From a virus (taxonomy: Duplodnaviria; Heunggongvirae; Uroviricota; Caudoviricetes), in IMG/VR virus record IMGVR_UViG_3300029841_000009, positions 1 through 64,000 of that record: a stretch of 64,000 nucleotides of DNA; one strand, written 5' to 3'. The notes beneath the pieces were generated by a model. The model searched no databases. It saw only the letters and a program-made list of their open reading frames with translations, and was not told the origin of the DNA. A program made the position numbers and the translations under genes. This document shows positions 12,224-27,670 of the stretch, piece by piece (position 1 is the stretch's first letter; every line of letters starts with the position of its first letter).

Positions 12224-12516
12224 TCCTGTTCACTGGCCTCTTTGGCCATCTTCAAATACTGTTCAGGGCAATGCGCCATAACGCGCTGAAACAGTTCCAG
12301 CGCCAGATTGCGTTGCCCCTCATTAAATGCCATTGCCATAGCGTCCATCGGTGAGATAGCGGAAAACACACGGCCTTTCTCCAGCACCGACCAGACAACG
12401 CGACGCCCCTGTTCACTGCTCATGACAAAGCGAATGTCATCAATTTCACGCTGTGCCATGTCACGTTGCTTACGGGCGTTTTCTTCTTTCAGTTGATCAT
12501 CTTCGTAATCTGTCAT
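12220..12516 (-). CDS. hypothetical protein
   Basis: 98-aa ORF overlapping the portal stop and scaffold start (translational coupling). Confidence 0.4.
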   Translation of the reverse strand: MTDYEDDQLKEENARKQRDMAQREIDDIRFVMSSEQGRRVVWSVLEKGRVFSAISPMDAMAMAFNEGQRNLALELFQRVMAHCPEQYLKMAKEASEQE

Positions 12517-14192
12517 TGTGATTGCCCACCCTGACCACTAACTGCATTCGCCATAGCTGACAAAACACTCGGATCCGAAGTTTTAGCTTCGCTTAGCGTC
12601 TTGGCACCCTGTGCCGCCGCCATCCCCATCGCCATCATTTGTTGCTGCTGTTGTTGCTGTGCCCGTTGCTGGCGAGCCTGCTCAACCTGTTCCTGCGGAA
12701 CAATGACGGTTGGAGACACTCCGGACATATCAGCGAATGCATCGATCGCCTGATCAACGTTGAGTTTGTCGAGAGCTTCTGGTTTCGCTTGCGCAAGTTG
12801 ACCAATGAAGTTAACCGTGGACGCCAGACTGGACAGGCCGATAGACTTCTGCGCCTGAGCCATGACGGAAATGTATTCGACCTTCAGGGGCATACCTTCC
12901 ATCACGTCTGGCGGTGGCGGCAGCATGTTTTTACGCACCATCATCGAGAAAGAGCGGTCAATGAGAGGATTAAGACATTCGTCGTTCAGACGCTCCAGAA
13001 CCGGCCCCAACATCAGAAGTTTTTCTTCTTTCATTTCGATCACCGCTTCAACAGGCATCGAGCGGGTATTGATGTTCTGCAACATCATGAACAGATCGAC
13101 AAAGTAGGCGCTGTTAATGATTTGACGAGTGTCCTGAATGTCTGCCACCAAATCTGCTGTACTGGGGTTAACCAGATAAGCAGGCCTGAAACCATCCTGA
13201 CCAGTAATCTGATCGATATACGTGATGTCGCCAGGAAGAAGGGAGGCACGCTGATTCTTGAGGGAAGTCGGAGCAACCATCGGCGGATTGGTGGCTTTAT
13301 CAATCAACTGCGACTTGCGCTTCTGGAGAAGCTGCAATGCCTTAACAGGTCCAAGCGCCAGCATACCCGGGCATGATGATCCATAAACATCTTCGCCGTT
13401 AACTTCCCAGCGCGGGGCCATAATTGGAAACTCATCGAATCCGGACTCACGCAACAACTTGTCGTTATCGCCACCAACCTCGTAATAAACCGATTTGAAT
13501 GGCTTGTTCTTGCTATCCAGCTTCGATGTATCGCGGTCAATGTTCGGGTAAACCGAATGCATCACTTCAATCCACTTCTCGTAGGTTCCGCTTTCCCACA
13601 TGCTTTTTACGGATTCGCTGACGTTATTTAGCCCGAACTCCTGAACAAGCTGACGAACAGTCATAGAGAACTTGCGAAAACAGGTGTCCACACTGCCACG
13701 AGGTGAGTTAGCCAGGTAGTAACTGCCTATCGGGAATGGCATTGTGCGAATGATGTCCTCGTCATCCTCCAGCACTGCCATTGCACCAGTGCTGTATGTG
13801 CCGAGGCTTCCGTATAACTGCGGCAGCGACTGATAGAGATTCGACTTATTGAACATATCGTTCATGCGGTTCTGCACCGCCTCAAGCCACAACTTAACAG
13901 GGCCATAATCCATCATTTCAGGATCTGGCGTAGCCAGGCGAAACCACGGACGCGCGGGGCTTGTGATGCCTGACATCATGCCGCTGGCGAGAGTGCGCGC
14001 CGCCATAGTCCCGGTCGAATCAATAATGCGTGTATTGCGTCGATCGTTACGGTTGACCTCAGAAGTCAGAAAGCGGGAACCACGCGGGTTGATGTAATCA
14101 CTCAACTCGCGCCAGTGCGGCTCGAACGACTGACGCTCGCTTTCAAGTTGTGCGAACTGTTTGTTCAATCGCTCTTTAGTTGTTTCCGCCAT
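12513..14192 (-). CDS. portal (head-tail connector) protein
   Basis: 559 aa, first large gene after the terminase; GGAG ribosome-binding site upstream of the ATG; Gln-rich C-terminus; size matches podovirus portals. Confidence 0.65.
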   Translation of the reverse strand: MAETTKERLNKQFAQLESERQSFEPHWRELSDYINPRGSRFLTSEVNRNDRRNTRIIDSTGTMAARTLASGMMSGITSPARPWFRLATPDPEMMDYGPVKLWLEAVQNRMNDMFNKSNLYQSLPQLYGSLGTYSTGAMAVLEDDEDIIRTMPFPIGSYYLANSPRGSVDTCFRKFSMTVRQLVQEFGLNNVSESVKSMWESGTYEKWIEVMHSVYPNIDRDTSKLDSKNKPFKSVYYEVGGDNDKLLRESGFDEFPIMAPRWEVNGEDVYGSSCPGMLALGPVKALQLLQKRKSQLIDKATNPPMVAPTSLKNQRASLLPGDITYIDQITGQDGFRPAYLVNPSTADLVADIQDTRQIINSAYFVDLFMMLQNINTRSMPVEAVIEMKEEKLLMLGPVLERLNDECLNPLIDRSFSMMVRKNMLPPPPDVMEGMPLKVEYISVMAQAQKSIGLSSLASTVNFIGQLAQAKPEALDKLNVDQAIDAFADMSGVSPTVIVPQEQVEQARQQRAQQQQQQQMMAMGMAAAQGAKTLSEAKTSDPSVLSAMANAVSGQGGQSQ

Positions 14193-14206
14193 TTCAATGA
14201 CTCCGG

Positions 14207-14413
14207 TTACTGACCAAGCAGCGTTTTACCGCTGGTATTAGCGGTTGATGTGTCGCCCTGAGAACCGGTAAGCAGCGTAGAACTACGACCAGCAGCAGCG
14301 CGACGGCGACGAGTTTCTTCGTCGCGGGCATCAACAACGGCGGCATCCTGCTCCTGTGGTGCTGCCTGAACTTCTGGTGTTGCAGGCACTGATGGTGAGC
14401 TACCCATGCACAT
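14207..14413 (-). CDS. small low-complexity ORF upstream of portal
   Basis: 68-aa Ala/Thr/Gln-rich ORF; weak coding evidence. Confidence 0.2.
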   Translation of the reverse strand: MCMGSSPSVPATPEVQAAPQEQDAAVVDARDEETRRRRAAAGRSSTLLTGSQGDTSTANTSGKTLLGQ

Positions 14414-14840
14414 ATCAATGACTCCGTACGCAATTAAATTATTACCAATTTAACCACATATGATTTATTTATCGTAGATAGTTGACATTTAACGCACAAA
14501 TTATTACCTTTCAGGTAACCAAAGAATTCATTCCGGTTACTAACCTGACTGGCTTGTCGTTAAATTGAACAGGTGGAGTGAGCTTTTATTTTGAGCAGTA
14601 CGGCGTATGGCACATGCGCCGATAGCGGTCTGGATACGTTTAAGGGGCACCCTCCCTGGCTGTGGCAAACGAACCAGGTAGCCGGAATGTGCAAGTCGAG
14701 CGGTTTTATTCCGCGCACGGGGATTCACCATCCCGGCGATTCGGTGTGACGCCTCGGAAGAGACGAGGGTACAACGATGAGAGCATTTATGGAGCCGCGA
14801 CAAAGTGTGGCGCCTTAACAGGCTAAGTGCTCTCAGCGTT

Positions 14841-14917
14841 GTGGCATTAGCTCAGTCGGACAGAGCAACCGCCTTCTAAGCGGTTGGTCGCAGGTTCGAA
14901 TCCTGCATGCCACGCCA
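14841..14917 (+). tRNA. tRNA-Arg (anticodon UCU), CCA-encoded
   Basis: Cloverleaf traced by hand: acceptor GTGGCAT/ATGCCAC, D-arm GCTC/GAGC, anticodon stem ACCGC/GCGGT with loop CTTCTAA, T-arm GCAGG-TTCGAAT-CCTGC, discriminator G and CCA; closely resembles E. coli argU. Confidence 0.85.
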
Positions 14918-15115
14918 GAATCACGCCTAAGGACCGTGATGCCAGAAGTTCCAGGTGCTTGGCGGTGATGGTTTCCCTTGAAGGACTATCACCACCCTTT
15001 TTACAGCAGGACGCCATTGCGATGACTTCATGCTGTAAACCAGTACAGCCACGGAAGGCATAACTCATTGCTTCCAGTTCGCCCGATTCGCCGGGCATTT
15101 TTTTAAGGTGAGATT

Positions 15116-15487
15116 ATGAACGACCAGCAAATCGAAAAAGAAATCGTTGAGAAAGGCAAAACGGCACCGCGCGTTACGCCAGACCATATCGAAGGCATTA
15201 TTGCTCAGGAGGCATATTTCACAGCAGAAGATGGTGCCTTTGGCAAAGCCATAAAAGAGAAACATACTGGCGGAGAGGTAAACTACCAGCCGCACGAATC
15301 ACTTTCTCTGCTGACGTTCTGCGTCCTGGTGCTGCGCAACGGCTTCACCGTCACCGGAGAGAGCGCCTGTGCAAGCCCGGAAAACTTTGATGCGGAAATT
15401 GGTCGGAAGATTGCCCGGCAGAATGCTGTAAACAAAATCTGGATGCTCGAAGGTTACTTGCTGAAGCAGAAGCTAAGCGAGCAATAA
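15116..15487 (+). CDS. conserved hypothetical phage protein (moron, same strand as tRNA)
   Basis: 123-aa ORF on the opposite strand to the flanking structural operon; followed by a hairpin plus T-run. Confidence 0.5.
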   Translation: MNDQQIEKEIVEKGKTAPRVTPDHIEGIIAQEAYFTAEDGAFGKAIKEKHTGGEVNYQPHESLSLLTFCVLVLRNGFTVTGESACASPENFDAEIGRKIARQNAVNKIWMLEGYLLKQKLSEQ

Positions 15488-15504
15488 CGCCGTGACATGT
15501 CACA

Positions 15505-15537
15505 ATCAGCCAGCCTATGAGCTGGCTTTGTTTTATC
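15505..15537 (+). terminator. rho-independent terminator
   Basis: Hairpin AGCCAGC-CTATGA-GCTGGCT followed by TTGTTTTAT just after the 123-aa ORF. Confidence 0.4.
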
Positions 15538-15577
15538 CTCACCAGAGGATATCAGCAGCATTATCCCATCCAGCGGA

Positions 15578-17053
15578 TTAAGCATAGGGATCGTAATCTG
15601 TGATGGCTTTGCCTTGCTGGTTCTGCTGCCCGGGAATTCGCAGACGCTTCGACACAGGGAACGCAAACGTCAGCAGTAGCGCATCGCCTTTACCAGGAGA
15701 ACGCCCAAGTCGCTCTTTGATATCTTCCTTCGGTTCGATAACGATTTTACCGTCCACGCGAACTTTGTACTCTGCCGTCGACAGGTCGTCCGCTGTTTCC
15801 TGGTCATCCAGCATGCCGCCGAGCCTCAGCCATGTCTTGCATGAGTTGAACATCTCCCCACGCTTGTTGAGCATCTGCGGGTCAGTAGACGCGCCACCGA
15901 ACGGAACAAGTTGCCATGTACGACCCCAGCCGTCACCGATTGACTTCAAACCGGTTCCGTAACCGAAGTCGATGAACACCGCGTCAGCCTGATACTGGTC
16001 TTCAAAGTCAGCGATACGCTTCGCCATAATCAGATCGTCGGTAGTCTTGTTGCCAGTCCACAGCACCTTACTGTGTAGCCCCTGCCGCAGGTATATCACC
16101 GCGTCATCAACGCCTGAATATGCCGGGTCAACACCGATTATCACCGGAGCATGTGCAACCTGCGCAGCGGTTACCACCCGTTTCATTGCCTCGTCAGTAA
16201 GACCGGTAGGGATAAACTGCAATTCAGATGCATCAGGGAATATGCCACGCACACGGATTTTAACGAAGTCGCTATCTTCCCCGTAGTCATCAACCCATTT
16301 CTGCAACTGCTGTTTGTTGGTGCCTTCCACCGTCCTGCTGTCAATCTGCGCAGTTTTCCAGCGGTGTTTGTATTTGCGGAAACATTCACGGAAACGCCCG
16401 GTGTTACGTGTAGGGTTTCCGAAAGCCACCCAGATAATCTCAGTGTCTTCGTCCGTTAGCGCACCCTCGGCAACTTCCCACACCAGATCCGCAATGTTCG
16501 ACGCTTCATCAAATACCACAATGATGCGTTTACGCTCGTTGTGTAGTCCGGCGAATGCCTCAGTGTTGTGCTCAGACCAGGGGATTGCGTCAGCTCGCCA
16601 CCGCTTGTCGTGCCCAGGGTCATTGCTGTACATCGCGGTAGCGGTACAGGTAAACCAGTCTTTCGTGATAGCAAGGTTTGACCACTTGATAATTTCCGGC
16701 CAGGTCTTCGTTCGTAGCTGGTTGTCGGTGTTGGCGGTCACCACGACCTTACAATCCTCGCAAGTGGACATGCCCCAGTTGATCAGCATTGAGATGAATG
16801 CGGATTTACCAATACCGTGACCAGAAGCACGTGCCAGCATAAGCGGCTGATATCGCGTCTCTGGATTCTGCAGGTGATCACGTATCTCTCGGAACGCATC
16901 AGCCTGCCACTGACGTGGGCCGGTGGCATGTGCCAGTTCAGTCCCCTCTTCCCCCCATGGGAACGCATAGAGGGCATAGCCAAGCGGATCGTGAGTGAAC
17001 CCTGCAATATCCTCGATTAACTGCTCTTCAGGAGATAACGCTGTATCTGTCAC
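15578..17053 (-). CDS. terL: terminase large subunit
   Basis: 491 aa; Walker A-like GHGIGKS, Walker B-like VVFDEAS, C-terminal nuclease-like region; overlaps the small-subunit gene. Confidence 0.8.
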   Translation of the reverse strand: MTDTALSPEEQLIEDIAGFTHDPLGYALYAFPWGEEGTELAHATGPRQWQADAFREIRDHLQNPETRYQPLMLARASGHGIGKSAFISMLINWGMSTCEDCKVVVTANTDNQLRTKTWPEIIKWSNLAITKDWFTCTATAMYSNDPGHDKRWRADAIPWSEHNTEAFAGLHNERKRIIVVFDEASNIADLVWEVAEGALTDEDTEIIWVAFGNPTRNTGRFRECFRKYKHRWKTAQIDSRTVEGTNKQQLQKWVDDYGEDSDFVKIRVRGIFPDASELQFIPTGLTDEAMKRVVTAAQVAHAPVIIGVDPAYSGVDDAVIYLRQGLHSKVLWTGNKTTDDLIMAKRIADFEDQYQADAVFIDFGYGTGLKSIGDGWGRTWQLVPFGGASTDPQMLNKRGEMFNSCKTWLRLGGMLDDQETADDLSTAEYKVRVDGKIVIEPKEDIKERLGRSPGKGDALLLTFAFPVSKRLRIPGQQNQQGKAITDYDPYA

Positions 17054-17727
17054 TGATTGCCATCCTGACGTTCTTTCAGTCTCTTCCTGGCTGCCGCTAT
17101 GCGATCAGCAATTGTCACATTCACATTAACATCCAGGCGTTCTTTGAATGCGTTGACGTCGACGTGCTTACCAATCAGTTCGAGGTTCTTCACCTTGTCA
17201 GGCCATTTAATTTTTTTGAGGATGCCAACCAGCTCTTTCTCGTCTCCACGGCCTTCGAACATGTCGGCCAGTTCGAAACCTGTCAGGTACTGCCGCCAGA
17301 CCTTAGGCCATTCCGAGACCGGCTTGATGCTCATATCGTCGTTGAGAATGTCAATCACGTCCATCTGGTCGATCTCCACCAGGCGCATGAGAACGTAATC
17401 AGCACTGACGCGCATTCGTTTGTTGCGCTCCTCCATCAACTCGGCAATCCGTTTCTGAATGCGTTCATCGCGCATCATGACACTGGCTTTAACTGCCGCT
17501 GTATTTGGGGAGAATCCTGCATTAATCGCAGCCTGAGTCTGGTTTTCAGGCGTTTTGATGTATGACTGGCAATAAGCCTCCTGCATTGCTGTTAGTGGCT
17601 TAAATTGCGTTGATTTGCGTTTATAGGTTTTAGGTTCAGCAGGCATCATAACCACCGTGGTAATAGTTACCGTTGTGGTAATAGTACCATGCAAAATAAA
17701 GCCGCCATAGTTGGCGGCAGTATTCAA
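17050..17727 (-). CDS. terS: terminase small subunit
   Basis: Motif QEAYCQSYIKTPENQTQAAINAGFSPNTAAVKAS typical of small terminase DNA-binding domains; true start may be the internal Met (MMPAEP). Confidence 0.6.
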   Translation of the reverse strand: MNTAANYGGFILHGTITTTVTITTVVMMPAEPKTYKRKSTQFKPLTAMQEAYCQSYIKTPENQTQAAINAGFSPNTAAVKASVMMRDERIQKRIAELMEERNKRMRVSADYVLMRLVEIDQMDVIDILNDDMSIKPVSEWPKVWRQYLTGFELADMFEGRGDEKELVGILKKIKWPDKVKNLELIGKHVDVNAFKERLDVNVNVTIADRIAAARKRLKERQDGNQ

Positions 17728-17767
17728 AACCCATCAAATTCATCATGCATAACCCACTCGTGACATG

Positions 17768-18121
17768 TCACAATATTAATTTCGTTTCATGCCAGCCTTT
17801 AGTCACCCAGCATTGCGAGTCACCATTACACGGGCATGAATTCACAGGAACTCTCTCGCCGCACTTACCGCAACGTTTTCTGCTGATCGATTTTATACGC
17901 CCGTGCACGCGCGCATCATCCTGGCGGATCAGTAACGCTATATACTCACCAAATTCGTAAGGCGCACGCCCGGGGCGACGTGTGGCACAGTTACGCTCCA
18001 GCATTTCAATTTCCTGAGCATCAAGCACAATCTCCAGCTTACGCACACCAGATGCAGCTTGTCTGGCTCTCTGAGCGGCTTTGCGCTCTGCTGCTGCCTT
18101 AGCCATTACCATATCCACCAA
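17768..18121 (-). CDS. hypothetical protein with Cys-rich C-terminus
   Basis: 117 aa, TTG start in the track; C-terminal CGKCGERVPVNSCPCNGDSQC looks like a zinc-ribbon. Confidence 0.35.
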   Translation of the reverse strand: MVDMVMAKAAAERKAAQRARQAASGVRKLEIVLDAQEIEMLERNCATRRPGRAPYEFGEYIALLIRQDDARVHGRIKSISRKRCGKCGERVPVNSCPCNGDSQCWVTKGWHETKLIL

Positions 18122-18191
18122 ACTTCACCAGACATGATTCTCGCAATCACTATCATCACCAAAGTGATAATCACAACTTTAACTGGCGGCA

Positions 18192-18569
18192 TCATTCACC
18201 ATCCTGCTCCGGCGGTTCTGGCAGCGGCATCCAGTGGGTTACCTCCTTGAGATACAGGTCTTCGCCACCACCGTCATCCCAAGTGGGCTTGCCATCATTA
18301 AACCAGTCGCCATATACGCCGACCTGAGTGTTGGGGATGCTTGGTGGGTAGTTGTTTTTAAAGTCAGCAGCTAACACATAGCATTGTCGCTCTCCCATTT
18401 CTGGCATTCGTTCACTACAGCTTATCCAACTCTCCGGAGTTACCGGAGAGTTGCCAGCCTCATACGCCACACGCATCCAGTGCATAAGCGTTTCAGTGCT
18501 CACACAGCCGCAATCAACATCAATTTTGCCGTGCTGCTGTTCCAGCCATTGCTCAAGCGTAGTGCTCAT
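18192..18569 (-). CDS. DUF551-like phage protein
   Basis: 125 aa; C-terminal VTHWMPLPEPP motif recalled as characteristic of DUF551. Confidence 0.45.
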   Translation of the reverse strand: MSTTLEQWLEQQHGKIDVDCGCVSTETLMHWMRVAYEAGNSPVTPESWISCSERMPEMGERQCYVLAADFKNNYPPSIPNTQVGVYGDWFNDGKPTWDDGGGEDLYLKEVTHWMPLPEPPEQDGE

Positions 18570-18799
18570 TTTTCATCCCCCCGATGATGCCATCTGCATC
18601 GCATCTCATAACACCCCCACTCAACACGAAAACCACATAGCCTGTGCAGATCCACCCACTTCTGCGCCATCGCTGGCGACGTGTAAATCACAGTGAATGC
18701 GTTATCTTCGTTGTCGATTTGCGTAAACGTCACTTTGTACAACAACCCACCGTCGACACATGCTGTGTTCAACGATTTATTGCTAATACCCTCAATCAT
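18566..18799 (-). CDS. hypothetical protein
   Basis: 77-aa ORF, 4-nt overlap with neighbours. Confidence 0.35.
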   Translation of the reverse strand: MIEGISNKSLNTACVDGGLLYKVTFTQIDNEDNAFTVIYTSPAMAQKWVDLHRLCGFRVEWGCYEMRCRWHHRGDEK

Positions 18800-19443
18800 T
18801 CGTACTCACCCCCCGCTGTTTTGAATTTGATCTCCGCTGCCTGCAATGCGTGTTCGACGTCGAAGCGGTCCAGCCATCCACCAAAGTGGTGCGGCATCAT
18901 TACCACCCGCTCACCGCTATTTATTGGGTGGCCCATACGGGGTTCGTAGCCGTCCGGTAACTCGACTTCCCGCGCTTCCAGTTCTGCTATGCGCTTCTCT
19001 GATGCTTCAAGTAACGCCTGCTTATCGCGTAGCGCTTCTTCCAGTTCAGCAACATGGCACTCACTATCAATAAGGTTGTTCTCTGCGGCTTCCAGCTCAA
19101 CACGCAGCTTCCCTACCGTTAGCGCAATATCCTCGTTCTCTTGGTCGCGGCGTTTGATGTATTGCTGGTTTCTTTCCCGTTCATCCAACAATGCCAGCAC
19201 GGTAACTGGATTGGCTGCGGCGATGAATTCAGCATTGGCCTGCTGTTCCATTTGGAAATCTTCATCGAAACCGCTTTCAGGATGCGCTCCTTCAATTCTG
19301 CAAATGGGAAGATATCCAACAACTTCACGATGAATTAGCGCATCACCAGCATCAAATCTCTCCTCTCCATATTCTAGCGACCACACACCACACGTTGCTT
19401 TTTCTGCCTTAGCACGCAGTGCCTGGTAATTAATTTCGCTCAC
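18796..19443 (-). CDS. Ead/Ea22-like protein
   Basis: N-terminus SEINYQALRAKAE and coiled-coil middle; GTG start preceded by AGGAGG. Confidence 0.6.
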   Translation of the reverse strand: MSEINYQALRAKAEKATCGVWSLEYGEERFDAGDALIHREVVGYLPICRIEGAHPESGFDEDFQMEQQANAEFIAAANPVTVLALLDERERNQQYIKRRDQENEDIALTVGKLRVELEAAENNLIDSECHVAELEEALRDKQALLEASEKRIAELEAREVELPDGYEPRMGHPINSGERVVMMPHHFGGWLDRFDVEHALQAAEIKFKTAGGEYE

Positions 19444-19684
19444 TGGCTGCCTCCTGCTTTTCTGCCTTCAACACCATGCGAGAACCATCATCCAGCTCCC
19501 ACACTATCTCACCACCTTCAGCCATGACCAGTTGCCACACCAATTGAGCAGCCTCATTGGTAACATCACGACCTGGATCATTGCCAACGCGCATACGTCC
19601 ACCTTCAACATCGCGCATTTTTGCCAGCATGATAGTTTTTGATAGCGGTGAAAAACCAAGCTGTAGTCGTGCTGAATTACTCAC
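19430..19684 (-). CDS. hypothetical protein (probable GTG start)
   Basis: Track ORF 19430..19717; AGGAGG-N6-GTG at codon 12 suggests the real start at 19684; the junction sequence is shared with the neighbouring Ea22-like genes. Confidence 0.35.
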   Translation of the reverse strand: MSNSARLQLGFSPLSKTIMLAKMRDVEGGRMRVGNDPGRDVTNEAAQLVWQLVMAEGGEIVWELDDGSRMVLKAEKQEAASERN

Positions 19685-20277
19685 TGGTTGCCTCCTTTGC
19701 GAAGCTGTTCCGCCCATTCTTCAAGGGATTTCTCCGCATATTCACCGGACAGGCCATCAATCGGATGCGCTTCATTAACCAACTCTTCTTTCGCTGACAA
19801 AATCATGCGTGTAACGTCGAAAACTTCACGCAAAGACTTATTGATAAATCCGTGATTGAACGCAGCAGCAAGACGGCTGGCGGTATAGTTAATCCCCTCG
19901 TTGCGTGCTTCCGCACGAATTTCAGCCAGAAAAGCATCGGTAGCTGGAGTTTCGCTGTGGTGTAGGGCATCATTGATAATCATTGCAGCAACACCAGCCT
20001 GCCCTGCATCCGTGACCGACACATGCTCAAGAGTTACGGCCATTGCGTGTTTCAGTCCGTCGTTCTCCACCACCAGCGCAGCGAGATTAGTCTCATACTC
20101 CGCAATTCGGCACATAGCATCGATATTTGTGTCCTCCAGCCGCTTAATTTCATCCAGTAGCGCCAGCACAACCTGCGGTGTGACCTTCATACGAAACGCG
20201 AGCAATTTTTGCGGCGTTGCCACGACTTTTATTGCTTCTGCTGCCTCACGCAGTGCCTGGTAATTAATTTCGCTCAC
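19681..20277 (-). CDS. Ead/Ea22-like protein (second paralog)
   Basis: Track ORF 19681..20307; AGGAGG-N6-GTG start at 20277 gives the N-terminus SEINYQALREAAE, paralogous to 18796..19443. Confidence 0.55.
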   Translation of the reverse strand: MSEINYQALREAAEAIKVVATPQKLLAFRMKVTPQVVLALLDEIKRLEDTNIDAMCRIAEYETNLAALVVENDGLKHAMAVTLEHVSVTDAGQAGVAAMIINDALHHSETPATDAFLAEIRAEARNEGINYTASRLAAAFNHGFINKSLREVFDVTRMILSAKEELVNEAHPIDGLSGEYAEKSLEEWAEQLRKGGNQ

Positions 20278-21034
20278 TGGTTGCCTCCTGAATACGCTTA
20301 AACTCAATTACCCATACCCACGGGTTAGATAGCCAGTTCTCTTGCCCGTAAATACCGCGCCAGATATCACCAAAGCCAACGCGATAAACAGCTTCCGGCG
20401 GTGTAATCTTGTACGTCGCCGGAGATGCGCCTTCCGCTTTAGCATCTGCCTCGCTCATGTCATGCAGCCGTTCCACACGCACGTCGGTAATTTCCAGCAA
20501 AATACGCGAAGCCCAGCGCGGCATGTGAATTGATGGACACCACCCGCCATCAAACTTTTCATTCACAGTGTGAGGTTTCCAGTCGGCATCATCGGGTATC
20601 GACCACAGGCCGTAATCACCAGGCTTTTGCTCGCAACTGGCCCGATAAATCCTTGCTGCGTTCTTCTCATCGCCACGACAAAGGTTGTCGTTCCAGTCCA
20701 CACTGCAACCATCCTCATTGCCTAATATCGCCCACGCTTCACGGACCCATATGCGATCACCAACGTTACCGAACGGACATAAACCATGTTCAGGTGCATC
20801 CATAACGTGGGTATAGACACCATTGCGTTTCTTTGTCGGTTTACGGATAACCAGGCAGTTATCGGCCCTGACATTTTTTACAGGTCGGCGAGTCTGCGTC
20901 TTCCTGCCTTCGAGGATGGCCCTGACCATCGCATCATTAAAAATCATGCCGCGCTCTTTCATCTTGCTCACTTCAACTCCTCCCGACGACGTTCCTGAAG
21001 CTCTAGCATTGCTGCTCGGAAATCCTGCCACCAT
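20264..21034 (-). CDS. hypothetical phage protein (possible ASCH/PUA-like fold)
   Basis: 256 aa; MVRAILEGRKTQTRR resembles the GxKxxExR N-terminal motif of ASCH domains; start may be an internal Met. Confidence 0.35.
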   Translation of the reverse strand: MVAGFPSSNARASGTSSGGVEVSKMKERGMIFNDAMVRAILEGRKTQTRRPVKNVRADNCLVIRKPTKKRNGVYTHVMDAPEHGLCPFGNVGDRIWVREAWAILGNEDGCSVDWNDNLCRGDEKNAARIYRASCEQKPGDYGLWSIPDDADWKPHTVNEKFDGGWCPSIHMPRWASRILLEITDVRVERLHDMSEADAKAEGASPATYKITPPEAVYRVGFGDIWRGIYGQENWLSNPWVWVIEFKRIQEATSERN

Positions 21035-21333
21035 TCCTCATCTGCAACGGGGGTGTTCCGCTCCAGCACCTTGTCCGCATCGGAGATCAGGTTTGCCAGA
21101 CTCTTGTCTGAAATCTTCGTTACCGGAGTCGTTGGTTGCTCAACCTGCCCGATAGGTTTTATCGTGCTCAAAAGGAGGCGACGGCGGGAAAGTGGTGCCC
21201 CACAACGACGGCCATCTTCCTTGCGATATGTTTCTTTCGGACCAACACACCAGGTTGTCGGCGTCTCGCGCAACTTCACTTTTTTCTCACCATCATTGGT
21301 AATGATTATTCCGGTATGGGTTTTGATGCTCAT
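20968..21333 (-). CDS. hypothetical protein
   Basis: 121-aa basic ORF; overlaps the upstream ORF in another frame, so the start is uncertain. Confidence 0.3.
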   Translation of the reverse strand: MSIKTHTGIIITNDGEKKVKLRETPTTWCVGPKETYRKEDGRRCGAPLSRRRLLLSTIKPIGQVEQPTTPVTKISDKSLANLISDADKVLERNTPVADEEWWQDFRAAMLELQERRREELK

Positions 21334-21632
21334 GCCACAGCCCCTCTCAACGGCTTAACTTTGGCTAATAAGGTGTTAAACAACATGGAGTTAGGATTCA
21401 TGCCAAATGGCAATTCCGGTTTAGCGGAGTAGTACAGGCAACCATTTATTTTCCTGGTTGTTATCTGTCCTTCGGCAACCATGCTTCTCAGTCTGCAACG
21501 CATAGAGTTCTGCGACACACCAATGTGCTCCGCGATTACGTCCACTTTTGAACATGGGTGATCGGTCAGGAAATTAATCACATCTTGGGGGTTAATAATT
21601 TTGCGTTTCATTGTCGAGGCGTCCTTATACAT
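21330..21632 (-). CDS. small hypothetical protein (possible DNA-binding)
   Basis: 100 aa; likely start at the internal Met (MKRKII, about 21611) with an AAGGA ribosome-binding site; a hairpin terminator and AT-rich motif lie upstream. Confidence 0.4.
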   Translation of the reverse strand: MYKDASTMKRKIINPQDVINFLTDHPCSKVDVIAEHIGVSQNSMRCRLRSMVAEGQITTRKINGCLYYSAKPELPFGMNPNSMLFNTLLAKVKPLRGAVA

Positions 21633-21688
21633 TTATATAAATATATAATTCTATATACGGCGGGAGACATCCCGCCGTAGGCTTACTG

Positions 21689-22756
21689 TCAGGCTTTCAA
21701 TAGCGATTCTTTCAGATATCGGGCATCAGCCAGGGCATTTGGAGTAATCTTGCGAACCCATGCATTACGGGTTGGACTCCACTTAAAGGCGCGTGATTTA
21801 AGCAGCGAACGAATGTTTGCCTCTGGTTTGCCAGGGAAATAAAACAGGATGCGGTTATCCTCTGGATCTATCTCCATAGAAAAGTCGTCGTATTCTTCGC
21901 GCTGTGCTCCTGTTACAGACTTGACCGATTCAAGCTCCTTAATACGGCTCTGTAGTCGTTTGATCTCGGCGTTATTGTTGCTCAGTGCGTATGAAGGGAA
22001 TCCGATGTGCCCACAGAAATCTCCGGCCAGTAACTCTTTGGCTTCGCTTTCTGTAAACCTGAGATCGATTAATGCAGAAAGCTGCTGTAATTGGTCTTTT
22101 TTGTATTTGCGAATGGCCTTATTTGCGGCCTTCATTTTGACGTGTGACTTCATGCAGCCTTGCAGCTTACGAAGCAACTTAAATAGCGCATCAGGATCAT
22201 CAGACGAAATTCCATTACGACCAACACCTGCGGCTTTGCTCTCGTAGTGTGATGCTTTACTTTCGCATTCAACAAACGCTTTTCTTAATAACGCATCAGC
22301 TTTAGACAAACGGCGGCGATGGCCTTTCGCGCTATAATGGTCAACTAAAATCGGCTGGCCTAACGGGATCACATCCAACAGGTCATGCGCTCGCTTATGC
22401 GCTACCGCACCTTCTTTTCTGGCTTTTTCTGCACGAGCAATATATCGGGCAAGACGCGCGTTCTGGCGTTCCTGATAGGTGTTTACGTAATCATCTCCGC
22501 GCTGCTGCTGTTCAAGCCATGCTTTGCGCAGATCTTCTGTTACGTCCACCAGCTCCGCAGGGATACAACCAGTTTGGGCTTCATAAGAGTAACCATCCTC
22601 ATAGATACGCCCATCATCTTCAACAAAGAAAAAGGTTTCGTGCTCATCGCTTTTGACCATACGACCATTAACATGGCGTAATAGGTAGCCAGTATCAGTG
22701 CTTAACAGGCTGTTAGGGTTGTTGATCCAGTCAGAAATAATTACTTGTTTATTCAT
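21689..22756 (-). CDS. conserved hypothetical protein
   Basis: 355-aa ORF driven by promoter-leader repeat copy A; followed by hairpin CGGCGGGA-N4-TCCCGCCG. Confidence 0.5.
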   Translation of the reverse strand: MNKQVIISDWINNPNSLLSTDTGYLLRHVNGRMVKSDEHETFFFVEDDGRIYEDGYSYEAQTGCIPAELVDVTEDLRKAWLEQQQRGDDYVNTYQERQNARLARYIARAEKARKEGAVAHKRAHDLLDVIPLGQPILVDHYSAKGHRRRLSKADALLRKAFVECESKASHYESKAAGVGRNGISSDDPDALFKLLRKLQGCMKSHVKMKAANKAIRKYKKDQLQQLSALIDLRFTESEAKELLAGDFCGHIGFPSYALSNNNAEIKRLQSRIKELESVKSVTGAQREEYDDFSMEIDPEDNRILFYFPGKPEANIRSLLKSRAFKWSPTRNAWVRKITPNALADARYLKESLLKA

Positions 22757-22870
22757 CAGATTTCTCCGGTTTAACCAGGGCGGGTATCGCTCGGTTTCGG
22801 GTATAACCTTAGGAAATTTTTTCCCACCTGTAAAGCACTTTTTATATAAATCTATAATTATATATTTATA
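22757..22870 (-). repeat. promoter-leader repeat, copy A (TTTACA-17-TATGGT with shared 5' leader)
   Basis: About 110 bp nearly identical to 32755-32870 and 63334-63449; lies immediately 5' of the 21689..22756 start. Confidence 0.7.
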
Positions 22871-22925
22871 GATTTTCGATGTTCCCGATGTCTACACACC
22901 ATCAAAACAGCTCAAAATGACACTT

Positions 22926-23303
22926 TTACTCTCTTCGCTTTTTCAAATAGTCGACAACATACGCCCTGGCTTTTGCCAGCTTCCGGCGATACTGTCTGAG
23001 GCTAAGAGAAAGGGCGTGGGCTTTATCAATATGCGGTGCATTTATGTCGAGGCCCCGAATCTCCCACGCCCCGTATTCAATTCGGACAACCAGCGCCGCA
23101 GTCTCATCAACTACCGTGAGGGCCGTCACCGCTCCCTCTATACTGGTTTCCAGTGAGTCATTTGGTGCGCCGCCCCCTCCGGTAAACTGGCAGCGCGTAA
23201 CCATCATCATTTCTAACATCGACGCGAAACCGCTACGGGCGTTGCAGCCATTGCGCACCCACAGCGCCCATAGCTCAAACAAGCTATCCAGATCGCGTCT
23301 CAC
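22926..23303 (-). CDS. hypothetical phage regulatory-region protein
   Basis: 125-aa ORF; no motif recognised. Confidence 0.35.
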   Translation of the reverse strand: MRRDLDSLFELWALWVRNGCNARSGFASMLEMMMVTRCQFTGGGGAPNDSLETSIEGAVTALTVVDETAALVVRIEYGAWEIRGLDINAPHIDKAHALSLSLRQYRRKLAKARAYVVDYLKKRRE

Positions 23304-23306
23304 TGT

Positions 23307-23639
23307 TCAGATCTCCCGTATCGTGACGGGATAAAGCGCCTCTACCTGCTTTTTCTTCATGATGTAGACGTCTGTTCGCACACCTTTAGTGTCGACACAA
23401 TCAATCGTCCCATCGTCATAAAACACCATGAAATCAAGTTTATAAACGACACCACCTGGCAGATGAAAAGGCACCTGCATAAGAAACGTCACAACGCGGC
23501 CAGCTTTTCTCAGTAGCTTCAGTTCGCAGTAGTAATCAGCCTCTTTTTTGCTATCAAAAGAGATATCATCGACAACAGTTTTTTTATTGCCGTATTTGCT
23601 TTTCCTGGTCGCTGGTTTGCGAAAGCCGGTATATCTCAT
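23307..23639 (-). CDS. DUF1064-like phage protein
   Basis: 110 aa; pattern YGNKKT...FDSKKEADYY...VPFHLPGG recalled as DUF1064, common in phage replication modules. Confidence 0.45.
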   Translation of the reverse strand: MRYTGFRKPATRKSKYGNKKTVVDDISFDSKKEADYYCELKLLRKAGRVVTFLMQVPFHLPGGVVYKLDFMVFYDDGTIDCVDTKGVRTDVYIMKKKQVEALYPVTIREI

Positions 23640-24040
23640 TTGGTATCCCCTGGTACTTCACCAAGACTAAGATCAAACCCAATTTCGTCTTTAACTGACT
23701 GCGGCAACAGCTCCCACGTCTGCGCACACAAAAATTCATCGGTGCCATAACGCTCAACAAAGCGAGCACAATTACTCAGGGGAGGGTGACGAACGGCAAT
23801 ATGCGGAGGCACGCGCCCACCACCAGGCACAACACCGCGATGATGTGGTGCGCACAACCCAAAGCTATGGAAGTGGCAATTCTCATCAACGCTGCCGTAA
23901 TCAGGATCGTGATGTAGCTCCGTCCACAGCTCTGGATTCTCAATTTCACGGCCATCAATAATGCAAGCTATGCAACCCACGTGAGTGAGCACCGCTTGTA
24001 TATAAAGTTTCTCTTTCTTCGTTGGTGTACGTCCGTTCAT
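23636..24040 (-). CDS. Cys/His-rich protein (NinG/HNH-like putative nuclease)
   Basis: 134 aa with CIAC ... HHD ... CHFHSFGLCAPHH metal-binding-like motifs. Confidence 0.35.
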   Translation of the reverse strand: MNGRTPTKKEKLYIQAVLTHVGCIACIIDGREIENPELWTELHHDPDYGSVDENCHFHSFGLCAPHHRGVVPGGGRVPPHIAVRHPPLSNCARFVERYGTDEFLCAQTWELLPQSVKDEIGFDLSLGEVPGDTK

Positions 24041-24273
24041 CAGCGCCCCTTACCATTGATAAAGAGGTTGAACTCGTTGATTAACTGGACATACATGCTT
24101 CTGGCCGCGTAGTTCTTTGCCAGCTCTTTACGGGATGAGATCCCGCAAAACTCACGCAGAATCACAGAGGCCTCAGAACTGTTTGAAACGTTCTTCCCTG
24201 TTTTACTGGTCAGAAAGCGCCAGAATTGGGGATTCTGGCAATGCATCGCAGCACCGCGAACATAACTACTCAT
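24040..24273 (-). CDS. hypothetical protein
   Basis: 77-aa ORF, 4-nt overlaps with both neighbours. Confidence 0.35.
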   Translation of the reverse strand: MSSYVRGAAMHCQNPQFWRFLTSKTGKNVSNSSEASVILREFCGISSRKELAKNYAARSMYVQLINEFNLFINGKGR

Positions 24274-24785
24274 TGATGGCCCCCGTCATTTCTGGTGCTT
24301 TTCACCGTGCGGCTTCTTAAAAACCTGCCATCACGAACAACAGACACTTCTCGTTTACCCAACCTCATTTCACGGCGGTAACATTCAGAAAATGCCTCGT
24401 CCGGCATCATATAAATGCGACGCTTCGCCTCCGTATCCAGAAGGGAACGGCTTGGGGTTACATATAAAAACGACTCATCAATAGGGACAAAACCACGAGC
24501 AAGAATTGCTGGCAGAATGCCAGGAAGAACGCAGAAAACAGCTCCACGATGCAGCAACATCTGGTACTCCATGACCTCCGTTATCCCCGTGACTACTGTT
24601 ACGGTGTCACGTCTGTTACGGCTGGCAACCAGTCGCTGCACACGTCCAATTTTCTGATCTACAGATAGATGTTTGCTATCGTTATCAATATGATCGATAG
24701 CAAATCCTTTAATCGTTTGATCAAGGTAGTGCACCACCTTCGATTGAATCTGGTGATTATCACCAAAGAAGGCCAGAATCATCAT
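24270..24785 (-). CDS. hypothetical early-region protein
   Basis: 171-aa ORF coupled to the Cro-like gene. Confidence 0.4.
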   Translation of the reverse strand: MMILAFFGDNHQIQSKVVHYLDQTIKGFAIDHIDNDSKHLSVDQKIGRVQRLVASRNRRDTVTVVTGITEVMEYQMLLHRGAVFCVLPGILPAILARGFVPIDESFLYVTPSRSLLDTEAKRRIYMMPDEAFSECYRREMRLGKREVSVVRDGRFLRSRTVKSTRNDGGHQ

Positions 24786-25276
24786 TCCTCAAGCCTCCCA
24801 AGTGCTGAACGCCGGGCGTTGCTAATCTCCTTATGAATCAGCTCGATATCGCTGGAATCTTTATTCTTAAGCTCCAGCACGGTAATCGCATCACGAACCT
24901 CTGAAACGGTTACGTGTGAGTGTTTCCAGCGAGCAATGAATCGCGGACCGCGTAGATTGCAACGCTCCGCAGGCATCCCCAACTCAGAGAAAACCGCTTT
25001 CAGCCTTGATAAGCAGTTAACAGGGAGATTCCCTTTGATCTTGTTCTGCCGAACCGATGTGCCATCGCTACGCTGGCGCTGACGTTCGGCAAAATCTGCC
25101 GCCCATTGCTGGACGTTAATCCGGCCTTCCGAATACGCCACCAGCAGCGTCAGGTTATCCGCACGAGGGAATCTCTCGAAGCGATACCAGGCACCAATCA
25201 GTGATGACGTAAAGCCAAACTTTCTGGCAACACCAATTTGGCCTCCATTTTCGTCAACCCACTCCTGAAAGGTCAT
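24782..25276 (-). CDS. Cro/YdaS-like HTH regulator with C-terminal extension
   Basis: 164 aa, divergent from the CI gene; N-terminal helix-turn-helix-like segment (GVARKFGFTSSLIGAWYRFERFP). Confidence 0.5.
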   Translation of the reverse strand: MTFQEWVDENGGQIGVARKFGFTSSLIGAWYRFERFPRADNLTLLVAYSEGRINVQQWAADFAERQRQRSDGTSVRQNKIKGNLPVNCLSRLKAVFSELGMPAERCNLRGPRFIARWKHSHVTVSEVRDAITVLELKNKDSSDIELIHKEISNARRSALGRLEE

Positions 25277-25289
25277 TTAACGAACTCCA

Positions 25290-25415
25290 GTTAAAACCAC
25301 GATATGTGGTATTAAAACCACATATCGTGAGTTTTTCAATGGGCAAAACAAAAAATAACCTTCTATTTGTGGTCCACCTCTCGTCTTACCATGTGAAAAC
25401 CACTAAATGTGGTAA
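25290..25415. promoter_or_regulatory. divergent operator/promoter region (OR/OL-like) with ACCAC-N5-GTGGT operators
   Basis: ACCACGATATGTGGT (perfect palindrome), ACCACATATCGTGAG and ACCACTAAATGTGGT between the Cro-like and CI genes. Confidence 0.6.
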
Positions 25416-25450
25416 TGTATAAATAACCCACCATTCACGATTGATGAGAC

Positions 25451-26107
25451 ATGAAAAGCAACGACGAGAACATCAAGAAAGAAATAGGTCTGCGCATTCA
25501 GACTCTACGGAAACAATCCGGCATGACTGCCGGAGATCTCCAGCAAGTCACTGGAATAGGCTTAAGCACCTTGCAGAACTATGAGGCCGGATTAAGACAA
25601 CCATCTATACCTGCCATCAAGAAAATCGCGCACGCCCTGAAAGCATCAGCGCCTTATATCGCGTGCTTAACAGATAACCCGTTCCCACCCCAGAATACTA
25701 ACGCTCCTGTTATTCCTGGGCTTGTAGCTATAAAAAATGACATAGCATCGCACGCCGGAGAAAAGCCAGTGCTGGCGATAGAACAGGAGATTCTACGAAG
25801 CAAGAACATCAACCCATCGTCTCTGTCAGTTCTCCAGAGCAACGATGAGTTAATGTCACCAACAATATCCCCTGGCTCCCAAGTCCTGATTGATACAGAC
25901 GATACAGAGATTCATGAGGGGATCTATGCCCTTGAAGACAGAAATGGCCTGGTTGTTTTGAGGCACTGTAGAGTCATACCGGGTGACAATGCTGTTATGC
26001 TGTCAACCGAAAGGGATGCTGAAATGAACACTAAGCATCTGAATAACGAGGAATTTAAGCGTTATAAAGTTCTGGGCCGCGTAGTTAGTGTTGTCAACTG
26101 GTTATGA
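25451..26107 (+). CDS. cI: CI-type repressor (HTH_XRE N-terminal domain plus S24 LexA-like autopeptidase domain)
   Basis: 218 aa; N-terminal HTH (LRKQSGMTAGDLQQVTGIGLSTLQNYEAG), C-terminal Ser/Lys dyad context (LMSPT ... RYKVLGRVV). Confidence 0.8.
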   Translation: MKSNDENIKKEIGLRIQTLRKQSGMTAGDLQQVTGIGLSTLQNYEAGLRQPSIPAIKKIAHALKASAPYIACLTDNPFPPQNTNAPVIPGLVAIKNDIASHAGEKPVLAIEQEILRSKNINPSSLSVLQSNDELMSPTISPGSQVLIDTDDTEIHEGIYALEDRNGLVVLRHCRVIPGDNAVMLSTERDAEMNTKHLNNEEFKRYKVLGRVVSVVNWL

Positions 26108-26199
26108 TACACAGCACGGCGAAAGCCGTGCATTTCTACGCTCAAAAAAACCACATTTTGTGGTTTTGACAACATGTGAAAGTATAAAAGAGGCTACGC

Positions 26200-26574
26200 A
26201 TGGAATTACATACAGCCAATAAAAACGAAACTCTGATCACTGCTGGAATCGAAATCCAAGCGTTGAACATAGCGATTGAGTGTATGTTATGCCAAATCAT
26301 TGATAATGAGAAAGATATCGACTGGATATCATCTACCCTTCATCTTGCTTACGAGCAAAAAGCCTGCCTCAAAACAGCCTTACAATACGATGTGCCTTCT
26401 GTATCAAAGCTGTGCCAGTCATTGATGGCATATAACAGAGCTATCATTTCTGTATGCCTCATGATTCTCGATGAGAATACCCCTCTTAGCGACCGCTCAG
26501 AAGCAGCTCTAACCCTCTCACGTAAACAGCGACAGCTAGCAAATCAACTGATATCAACGATAGCTGACCTCTGA
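26200..26574 (+). CDS. hypothetical protein downstream of cI
   Basis: 124-aa ORF preceded by an ACCACATTTTGTGGT operator-like palindrome; followed by a hairpin. Confidence 0.4.
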   Translation: MELHTANKNETLITAGIEIQALNIAIECMLCQIIDNEKDIDWISSTLHLAYEQKACLKTALQYDVPSVSKLCQSLMAYNRAIISVCLMILDENTPLSDRSEAALTLSRKQRQLANQLISTIADL

Positions 26575-26577
26575 CTG

Positions 26578-26600
26578 CAAGCGGGCTAACGCCCGCTTAT
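26578..26600 (+). terminator. hairpin terminator
   Basis: AAGCGGGC-TAAC-GCCCGCTT followed by an A/T-rich run. Confidence 0.4.
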
Positions 26601-26705
26601 ATGATTATAGATTTATATAATTATATAAAACGCTTTTCATCCGCCAAAAAGTTGGTTATGCTTACCTCGTTCTATAAATATAGATTTATAGAATTATATA
26701 ACCAA
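26585..26705. repeat. AT-rich iteron-like repeats upstream of parA (candidate centromere / par operator)
   Basis: Repeated TATAGATTTATA(T/G)AATTATATAA units; a further copy lies at 27377-27420 between the two par genes. Confidence 0.45.
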
Positions 26706-26709
26706 ACAC

Positions 26710-27378
26710 ATGGAGTCTCGACAAATGACTATCTCTGTAGGTATTTTCAACGGAAAAGGCGGCGTAACCAAATCAACAATTGCCCGTGCTTTAGCAGTTG
26801 CTTATGCAAAGGCTGGCTGGAATGTATGCCTGATCGATATGGATGTGCTTAACGGAACGGTAACGCGTTGGGTACAACGCAGAATGGCCAACAATATCGA
26901 ACCAGCAATCGCGGCGCAGCCGTGCGGCACACCATCACAAGTCCAGAAAATCATCGAATCAGAAGTATACGACCTGGTTATCGTCGATGGCGGTGCCTAC
27001 GCATCTGAATCAGTACCGAAGCTCTCTGAATTTCTGGATATGGTTATTTTGCCAACCAGATTCTCTACCGATGACCTGGAAACCACCGTTAACACAGCTC
27101 ACGGCATCGTTAAAAAGGGTGTACCAATCAAGAAAATTTGCATGGTGTTTTCCGGCGCGGCTGAAAACGAAGCTGACTATATTGAAGCCCAAGAGTACCT
27201 GGCTAATACGCCATACTTTGTTGTCGATAAGTACATTCCCCACAAGCCAGCTCTGAGCAAAGCTCAGGATAAGGGCTTAAGCCTTATTGAGTGCTCATAC
27301 GTTGCGCCACGCAAAAAGGCAGACGATGTTATCCAGGGGATTATCAATCAGCTTGAGGCTCTGACTACTGCCGCGTAA
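26710..27378 (+). CDS. parA: ParA-family partition ATPase (small type Ib-like)
   Basis: Deviant Walker A GKGGVTKST near the N-terminus, about 220 aa with no N-terminal HTH; the start may be the second ATG (26725) preceded by GGAG. Confidence 0.8.
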   Translation: MESRQMTISVGIFNGKGGVTKSTIARALAVAYAKAGWNVCLIDMDVLNGTVTRWVQRRMANNIEPAIAAQPCGTPSQVQKIIESEVYDLVIVDGGAYASESVPKLSEFLDMVILPTRFSTDDLETTVNTAHGIVKKGVPIKKICMVFSGAAENEADYIEAQEYLANTPYFVVDKYIPHKPALSKAQDKGLSLIECSYVAPRKKADDVIQGIINQLEALTTAA

Positions 27379-27421
27379 TATATAATTATAGTTTTATAGA
27401 TTTATATAAAAGGGGATACAC

Positions 27422-27670
27422 ATGGCCGCACCATCAAAACCACCGAAAAAGAACAGCAAAGGCGTACCGCCATCAATCGAACAACCGCAGGTTTTCGACC
27501 CGACTGAAACGCCGACCAGAACCAAATCAGGTGGGGCACAAATGGCGTTTAACGTCGACCCTGAATTTAAACGCGAGTACAAAACGTTCGCCAGCTCAAT
27601 GGATATGTCATTGAAAGAAGTGCTGACAAAATCTTTTGAGTTACTCAAGGCTCAATACAACCAGAAGTAA
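27422..27670 (+). CDS. ribbon-helix-helix ParG-like partition / centromere-binding protein
   Basis: 82 aa, disordered basic N-terminus then MAFNVDPEFKREYKTFASSMDMSLKEVLTKSF (beta strand plus helices), immediately downstream of parA. Confidence 0.55.
   Translation: MAAPSKPPKKNSKGVPPSIEQPQVFDPTETPTRTKSGGAQMAFNVDPEFKREYKTFASSMDMSLKEVLTKSFELLKAQYNQK

Follow-up and report, generated by a model that had tools for sequence, protein, structure and literature searches.

The window analysed here is the whole stretch of 64,000 nucleotides (nt) formed by positions 1 to 64,000 of the virus record IMGVR_UViG_3300029841_000009 (IMG/VR; Caudoviricetes). Around positions 18796 to 20962 it contains an array of small genes, whose junctions repeatedly use the same short sequence. 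We propose that this block of 17-19 nt, (A)AAGGAGGCA(A/G)CCAGTGAG, is a standard gene joint, which probably serves both the translational coupling of adjacent genes and, as a short homology, the gain, loss and exchange of whole gene cassettes. Within the block, a perfect Shine-Dalgarno sequence is followed, after a constant spacer of 6 nt, by a GTG start and by the first two bases of a codon for Ser. An upstream gene can end at the block in two ways, namely with the TGA of GTGA (...KGGNQ-stop), or a few codons into the next gene (...EATSE(R/Q)(N/D)-stop or ...SE-stop). The genes and repeats of the array, in the direction of transcription, are:

20264-20962, minus strand: ASCH-like gene, at the upstream end of the array; 232 aa if it starts at ATG 20962, 235 aa if at GTG 20971.
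20273-20289, minus strand: core C, AGGAGGCAACCAGTGAG; AGGAGG, spacer CAACCA, GTG of the 198-aa Ead gene and 2 nt of the Ser codon.
20236-20290, minus strand: extended repeat of 55 nt, copy 1; core C plus codons 1-13 of the 198-aa Ead gene.
19681-20277, minus strand: Ead/Ea22-like gene 2; 198 aa; PF13935, E=3e-11, 44.3 bits.
19697-20289, minus strand: Ead core-to-core cassette, 593 bp; core C plus the body of Ead gene 2.
19680-19696, minus strand: core B, AGGAGGCAACCAGTGAG; GTG 19684-19682 starts DUF7446, TGA 19683-19681 ends the upstream Ead gene.
19430-19684, minus strand: DUF7446 gene; 84 aa from GTG 19684; PF24233, E=7e-19, 67.9 bits against a cut-off of 24.1.
19439-19455, minus strand: core A, AGGAGGCAGCCAGTGAG; GTG 19443-19441 starts the 215-aa Ead gene.
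19402-19456, minus strand: extended repeat of 55 nt, copy 2; core A plus codons 1-13 of the 215-aa Ead gene.
18796-19443, minus strand: Ead/Ea22-like gene 1; 215 aa; PF13935, E=4e-32, 112.1 bits.

All genes between 17 and 25 kb are encoded on the minus strand. Three copies of the exact 17-nt core AGGAGGCA(A/G)CCAGTGAG are present, and the remainder of the 64-kb window contains no further copy, even if up to three mismatches are allowed. The repeat is not due to chance, as the expected number of hits is 0.19 and none of 100 shuffled sequences gave three. An initial annotation of this locus, made from the sequence alone, had claimed that three consecutive junctions reuse one sequence in which the upstream gene ends in SERN-stop. 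The first part of this claim holds for the 17-nt core, but not for the full 27-mer, which is found only at 19430-19456 and 20264-20290 and has no copy at junction B. The second part is correct for junctions A and C, where the stop codon of the upstream open reading frame (ORF) is a TAA located 14 nt within the downstream gene; at junction B, however, the upstream gene ends in ...RKGGNQ-TGA, in the other frame and with a 4-nt GTGA overlap. Specifically, core C is read in frame 2 by the ASCH-like gene, whose 3' tail (...QEATSERN-stop) is encoded by the core and the first codons of the next gene, and core A is read in frame 2 by DUF7446 (...QEAASERN-stop, TAA at 19432-19430). GTG starts preceded by AGGAGG as a ribosome-binding site, as initially annotated, are part of the core at all three junctions. 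Each Shine-Dalgarno sequence lies 6 nt ahead of its GTG within the coding sequence of the upstream gene, an arrangement typical of overlapping, coupled genes. The same gene boundaries are called at the junctions of homologous plasmids in RefSeq.

Self-alignment, which had been suggested as a check, recovered the repeat and revealed that flanking codons are conserved at junctions A and C, where the two 55-nt copies are 89% identical. Both downstream genes begin with GTG-SEINYQALR, in agreement with the initial annotation. At junction B, identity ends after GTGAG, i.e. after 17 nt. The similarity there is nearly limited to the ribosome-binding site and the start codon, yet identity also includes the spacer of 6 nt and the first two positions of codon 2. 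A further similarity of 24 nt found in the self-comparison, at 17775-17798, was judged to be a chance match.

The description of the locus as an array of Ead/Ea22 paralogs was accurate in so far as it contains two genes matching PF13935, both above the Pfam gathering threshold of 27 bits. The actual order, however, is ASCH-like, Ead (198 aa), DUF7446 (84 aa) and Ead (215 aa). The product of the first gene (20264-20962) has no match in Pfam; its homologues are annotated in RefSeq as ASCH domain-containing. The two Ead proteins have 12 of their first 14 residues in common and beyond these only a weak internal motif. Since the paralogues cannot be aligned elsewhere, they do not stem from a recent duplication.

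Comparison with related replicons indicates that whole cassettes are present or absent between cores. The segments 19413-19696 and 20273-20536 of the window align with positions 1757-2040 and 2024-2287 of NZ_CP069971 (locus L298), and the overlap of these flanking alignments is exactly the 17-nt core. The same was observed for NZ_CP032259. Both are complete 48-kb plasmids without the 593-bp Ead cassette between cores C and B, and their breakpoints lie inside the core. Due to the exact 17-nt overlap, the 593-bp Ead cassette can therefore be addressed as a core-to-core insertion or deletion. A systematic search identified, for 49 of 99 pairs of adjacent cores, a counterpart locus that contains a single core and the same outer flanks. 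These 49 pairs cover about 15 different spacings, ranging from 224 to 1237 bp. By far the commonest spacing of adjacent cores is that of the DUF7446 core-to-core unit, which is 241 bp and accounts for 63 of the 99 pairs. Furthermore, 19455, where core A has its 5' edge, is a recurrent end of long high-scoring segment pairs (HSPs) between the window and contigs of other phages, and 19677-19680, at the 3' edge of core B, is where others begin. These breakpoints were derived from HSPs of at least 150 nt; note that a histogram of all HSP ends is inflated by short hits that cover the joint only.

Cassette number and neighbourhood vary accordingly in otherwise conserved surroundings. Six complete plasmids of 48 kb, whose backbones are nearly identical, differ in the array located between a conserved 366-nt gene and the holin genes: the number of Ead genes is zero, one or two, DUF7446 is present or absent, and various small ORFs are added. 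Two phiV10-like chromosomal prophages have one and three Ead genes, respectively, so that the number of Ead genes ranges from 0 to 3 across backbones that are otherwise 97-99% identical. The comparison of cassette number proposed in the initial annotation thus gave a positive result. In addition, one and the same 3' end of the ASCH-like gene, GTAATTGAGTTTAA(G/A)CGTATT, is followed by the core with either Ead or DUF7446, or by another gene with a diverged joint, AAGGAAGCATAACTATGAGC. The reassorted flanks, the homologies that end at cores, the plasmids lacking a cassette and the variable number of Ead genes all argue for a recombination-prone cassette junction, as had been predicted. The joint itself is not specific to the Ea22-like genes for whose swapping it had been suggested.

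The core is widespread. An exact-pattern scan of IMG/VR found it in at least 120 viral contigs. Among the core contigs listed, it follows many unrelated 3' ends and precedes variants of Ead (SEINYQ, SKIDYQ and others) as well as several non-Ead starts. For a broader survey all fetched loci were pooled and two mismatches allowed, which yielded 228 unique junction contexts. Overlaps of stop and start are mostly 4 nt long (145 contexts), followed by 14 nt (67) and 8 nt (12). After the core-encoded residues had been stripped, the flanking proteins formed at least 16 upstream and 16 downstream clusters, which pair up in 38 different ways. For 21 sets of two upstream and two downstream families, each of the four possible combinations exists. 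With one representative per pairing, conservation is approximately 90-100% over AAAGGAGGCAACCAGTGAG and 30-50% on either side; the edges of the block are at about -15 and +5 relative to the GTG. At least 15 gene families other than Ead are preceded by the core.

Most of these junction sets were gathered by searching for the core; loci selected by their proteins (Ead, DUF7446) were added as less biased sets. The majority of the protein-selected Ead homologues have the core and a GTG start, and the rest are located in unrelated upstream contexts, mostly with ATG. The ea22 gene of lambda has kept the GTG-SEIN start and has no core. The core is therefore not forced by the N-terminus of Ead. In a codon-by-codon inspection of synonymous positions in Ead 5' ends, all the loci that had been selected by protein turned out to be closely related to the query across their first 240 nt. 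Among the homologues of DUF7446, those of the E. coli type carry the core after no fewer than 10 different upstream ends. More distant homologues have a second, related joint, AAGGAGCCGC(C/A)C(A/T)ATGAGCAA, and the joint downstream of these is CAGGAGGCCGCCCAATGAGCAAC.

The joint occurs in dialects. Dialect 1 was found in 359 GenBank phage records, about 85% of which are Escherichia or Stx phages. Dialect 2 (AGGAGGCCGCCCAATGAGCAAC) was found in 90 GenBank phage records, 55 of them from Salmonella; its carriers include P22 (eaF/eaD junction), ES18, L, ST64B, Gifsy-2 and Enterobacter phages. In dialect 2 (loci L202-L279 and phage records) the genes overlap by ATGA and the spacer is 1 nt longer; this form predominates in phages of Salmonella and Enterobacter. 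As the E. coli dialect has 1 nt less, DUF7446 does not end at the TGA there; it terminates at a stop within the following gene and is 84 rather than 81 aa long. The core was also located at the hkaH/hkaG(Ead) junction of HK620, at p46/p47 of phiV10, and in Stx phages, HK75, HK106 and P13374. A junction composed of the core and an Ead start is present in 2355 of 5426 complete E. coli genomes (43%), at up to 11 places per genome. The backbones that contain the joint are lambdoid, P22-like, epsilon15/phiV10-like and those of the 48-kb myovirus phage-plasmids; matches occur in plasmids of about 97 kb, too. The influence of the joint on the preceding protein is illustrated by a DUF2737-type gene, whose product ends in ...MWRKGGNQ-stop where the core is present and in ...MWRSGKK-stop in HK620, where the core is absent. 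To judge from such comparisons, the C-terminal tails encoded by the core are by-products, which appear on unrelated proteins in two frames.

We suggest the following mechanism. A pool of small accessory ("ea"-type) genes of temperate enterobacterial phages and phage-plasmids would use one joint, and consecutive genes of an array would be translationally coupled, as their overlaps indicate. Because each cassette starts and ends with the same block, recombination at short homologies could delete, insert or exchange whole genes and leave expression undisturbed. For Ead genes, the conserved first 13 codons would stretch the homology to about 45-55 nt. Exchange might take place inside a single genome, or between prophages, phages and phage-plasmids that reside together; two such units in the window would be the cassettes of Ead (593 bp) and DUF7446 (241 bp). 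Candidate pathways are annealing enzymes of the Red, RecET or Erf type encoded by phages, or RecA helped by the Ref nuclease of the plasmid. Candidate enzymes encoded nearby are a RecE/RecT fusion in phiV10-type phages and a Ref-family nuclease in the plasmid. The gene of this RecA-dependent nuclease (PF16786; about 23636-24040, minus strand) is located approximately 4 kb upstream of the array and is annotated in homologous plasmids. Ref, which is known from P1, stimulates RecA-dependent recombination; a link between the nuclease and recombination at short homologies is speculative.

Several points weigh against this proposal. Core-to-core exchange has been deduced from comparisons of sequences only. 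Efficient exchange by RecA or Red usually wants roughly 20-40 nt of homology, and 17 nt is shorter. Owing to this shortness, events at non-Ead junctions would have to be rare or reliant on partly matching flanks. As the junction sets were collected by means of the core, conservation within the block is partly built in, a bias which the protein-selected sets only lessen. The comparison of breakpoints covered core junctions only. Finally, illegitimate recombination combined with selection for intact genes and with the spread of one efficient initiation region could create a similar picture; such a process would account less easily for the exact 17-nt overlaps.

The last point leads to an explanation by expression only, according to which the block is an efficient or regulated coupling signal that rides along as the 5' end of each cassette, and the boundaries stem from illegitimate recombination and selection (Hendrix-type model). 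The perfect Shine-Dalgarno sequence, its near-optimal spacing and the GTGA or 14-nt overlaps are typical of coupled genes and would be accounted for in this way. So would the long, tightly packed operon, which has neither internal promoter-like nor strong terminator-like sites: on the minus strand of 18.1-25.3 kb, no promoter-like site was found and a terminator scan gave one weak hairpin only (20325-20310). There are also diverged forms of the joint, for example AAGGAAGCATAACTATGAGC and CAGGGGGCAAACGATG, and according to the literature most mosaic boundaries have no conserved sequences (PMC3233612, PMC3029335). What this model leaves unexplained is the invariance of the 6-nt spacer and of bases that encode, in two frames, the tails of unrelated upstream proteins, the fact that alignments overlap by exactly 17 nt at insertions and deletions, and the host-linked dialects, which are common to unrelated genes and in which orthologues differ from one dialect to the other. 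We therefore consider it unlikely, albeit with some chance of being right.

Much lower is the probability of plain paralogy, i.e. of a repeat that merely represents the conserved 5' end (ribosome-binding site and N-terminal peptide) of duplicated Ead genes and plays no role in recombination. It would suit junctions A and C, which share 55 nt ahead of two Ead genes with the N-terminus MSEINYQALR, and the Ea22 family is known for a common short N-terminal segment (PMC10834534). Junction B, however, has the identical 17 nt ahead of the non-homologous DUF7446. Moreover, the core stands before at least 15 non-Ead families and after 16 unrelated 3' ends in two frames, Ead genes exist without it, and the paralogues of the window cannot be aligned otherwise, which makes this explanation very improbable. 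Likewise very improbable is a dedicated site-specific system with integron-like cassettes, in which a recombinase or nuclease would recognise the junction. Such a system would explain why promoterless cassettes in variable number each have the same short boundary, and the Ref-family nuclease encoded about 4 kb upstream in the plasmid backbone might be its enzyme. In contrast to this expectation, the junctions have no inverted repeat or stable fold (z = 0.11, 0.69 and -0.57), no integrase or recombinase adjoins the arrays in the plasmids, the annotation of the plasmid lists no integrase at all, and the joint is found in backbones with different recombination genes, namely HK620 (Sak4-like), phiV10 (RecE/RecT) and the plasmids (Ref).

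A standard gene joint acting in coupling and recombination has precedents. A model of lambdoid mosaicism based on conserved boundary or linker sequences is attributed in PMC3233612 and PMC3029335 to Susskind & Botstein 1978 (modular theory) and to Clark et al. 2001 (work on HK620). In common with the present block, these are short sequences kept between unrelated genes, at which mosaic breakpoints coincide and which have been proposed as substrates of homologous recombination. Three characteristics of a boundary sequence were found here: a conserved junction block, coinciding breakpoints, and presence in lambdoid accessory operons including that of HK620. Relaxed homologous recombination by phage recombinases has been described, in which exchange between diverged sequences creates mosaics (PMC3945230). 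Both the boundary-sequence model and the experimental evidence on phage recombinases fit the block, which is an instance of this known kind in lambdoid-type accessory operons and not a new mechanism. What is documented here for the block is its use in two frames by upstream genes, the network of 16x16 families, the exact core-to-core insertions and deletions, the dialects, and the occurrence on several backbones. A literature search for the exact core string, whose reach did not extend to the text of Clark et al. 2001, returned no paper, and literature on Ea22 together with junctions or mosaicism dealt with mosaicism at the protein level only.

Other systems resemble the joint in part. The genes of the nin region and the early left operon of phages L and P22 (PMC8022706) are likewise small and non-essential, with overlapping stop and start codons and probable coupling. 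Their ATGA overlaps, however, are the generic 4 nt, whereas here 17-19 nt including the spacer are identical, the start is GTG and a second class of overlaps comprises 14 nt. Ea22 proteins of lambda and Stx phages combine a common short N-terminal segment and a coiled coil with unrelated C-terminal domains (PMC10834534), and the Ead genes studied here do likewise. That is domain mosaicism within a protein, in contrast to the intergenic joint considered here. In the mycobacteriophages Island3 and Brujita, a segment that is present or absent between direct repeats of about 50 bp has been attributed to general recombination (PMC3029335). This similar observation concerns one case in one cluster and longer repeats, whereas the 17-nt joint is found across hundreds of genomes. 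Integron cassettes (attC) also form promoterless arrays of variable number with a recurring boundary. Unlike integrons, the arrays have no hairpin attC-like site, integron integrase or attI, and the junction is a part of the coding and translation signals.

A more far-reaching interpretation, which we consider doubtful, is that the block is maintained as a pool-wide "standard plug". It would make accessory genes interchangeable in frame, with expression kept, across lambdoid siphoviruses, P22- and phiV10-like podoviruses and 48-kb myovirus phage-plasmids, and perhaps even fuse whole replicons, as the joint between the phiV10-like and the phage-plasmid part of the window may show. Ongoing exchange would keep the dialects uniform, and the system would be a recombinase-independent functional analogue of integron cassettes.

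Two candidate interpretations of the locus were dropped. One was an attC-like or riboregulatory structure; the folds at the three joints are no better than those of shuffled sequences. The other was an organisation as phage morons; a promoter and terminator of its own for each gene did not emerge from the scan.

The locus bears on a dispute about phage mosaicism, which has been ascribed to homologous exchange at short conserved boundaries or to random illegitimate joins filtered by selection (PMC3945230, PMC3233612). With a defined 17-nt joint and exact core-to-core variants in near-identical plasmids, it offers an unusually clean and abundant test case. Potential partners are present in almost half of the complete E. 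coli genomes, and the joint is open to direct mutation and assay. Gene annotation has to reckon with GTG starts, overlaps of 14 nt and varying C-terminal tails, all of which arise from the neighbouring gene. In assemblies, shared cassette arrays call for caution, as they are places where contigs of prophages and phage-plasmids may join, truly or artefactually.

The latter applies to the window itself, in which the array separates two backbones:

6085-18106: backbone of the phiV10 type (Uetakevirus), with 97-98% identity to NC_007804; includes terL, terS, the structural genes and the p55 regulator.
18192-18799, minus strand: further genes of the array, not joined by the core; one of 77 aa (18566-18799) and one for DUF551 (18192-18569), with ATGA overlaps.
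20962-64000: backbone of a 48-kb myovirus phage-plasmid, collinear with p853EC2 (NZ_CP040921) in the order 22140 to 49465, then 1 to 17720.

p853EC2 is a circular phage-plasmid of 49.5 kb, and its segment that is absent from the window contains a methylase, lysis genes and an Ead array of its own. Bona fide plasmids of 48.5 kb are 99.4-99.7% identical to the window from 19692 rightwards, and this identity stops at 19692, inside core B. On the basis of these alignments, the switch from plasmid-type to prophage-type sequence is placed inside core B. The 3' 269 nt of Ead gene 2 also occur in the eae-like gene p46 of phiV10. The draft contig CATTCA010000026.1 of GCA_958321215 (75.5 kb; loci L282/L305) is 99.93% identical to 18967-21999 of the window and 99.45% identical over 18967-28276. 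To the left of 18967, which lies in Ead gene 1, this contig has a different C-terminal Ead domain, followed by DUF551, AntA, an integrase and the chromosomal torS. Position 18967 is close to an internal mosaic breakpoint of Ead gene 1, which corresponds to the boundary between coiled coil and C-terminal domain. In about 70 complete E. coli genomes that contain the plasmid backbone, it is always a plasmid of 46-57 kb (in one case 31 kb), and chromosomal matches extend over only about 100 nt. No complete E. coli genome or GenBank phage covers at least 80% of 18500-21100 or of 17000-19700, and an exact look-up of the protein of Ead gene 1 gave no entry. The window is a hybrid of a phiV10-like podovirus and an almost complete phage-plasmid that was opened in the Ead array, and it may be either a real, rare cointegrate or an assembly chimera. 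In the first case a phage-plasmid would have recombined with resident prophages at the array; in the second, contigs would have been linked by the assembler through Ead sequence that they share.

Mosaicism is also found within the cassettes. The islands 19076-19239 (coiled-coil region of Ead) and 18400-18450 (DUF551) are shared with about 70-80 core-selected viral contigs, and the surrounding gene sequence is not, which indicates mosaicism at the level of domains. The pair formed by the 77-aa gene and DUF551 is common in chromosomal lambdoid prophages. Chromosomal lambdoid prophages (loci L285-L293, for example L285 9639-10004) contain a fusion-like Ead gene of 121 aa. It is similar to Ead gene 2 at the 5' end (window 20099-20277, 88%) but to Ead gene 1 at the 3' end (18796-18993, 98%), which suggests that Ead genes may recombine internally with each other, too.

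Two further observations concern the backbones. A repeat of about 115 nt occurs three times in the phage-plasmid part, at 22752-22867, 32754-32873 and 63332-63452, with a mean column identity of 87% over an aligned stretch that includes non-repeat flanks. Each copy is located directly upstream of the first gene of a minus-strand operon, among them the DUF3560 operon with the Ead array, and the repeat includes the AT-rich stretch TTTATATAAATCTATAATTATATA. Its copies probably serve the phage-plasmid as promoter/operator or leader. In the phiV10-like part, a gene for tRNA-Arg (anticodon TCT) is located at 14841-14917 on the plus strand, between the portal and terminase genes, and is annotated in related Uetakevirus records.

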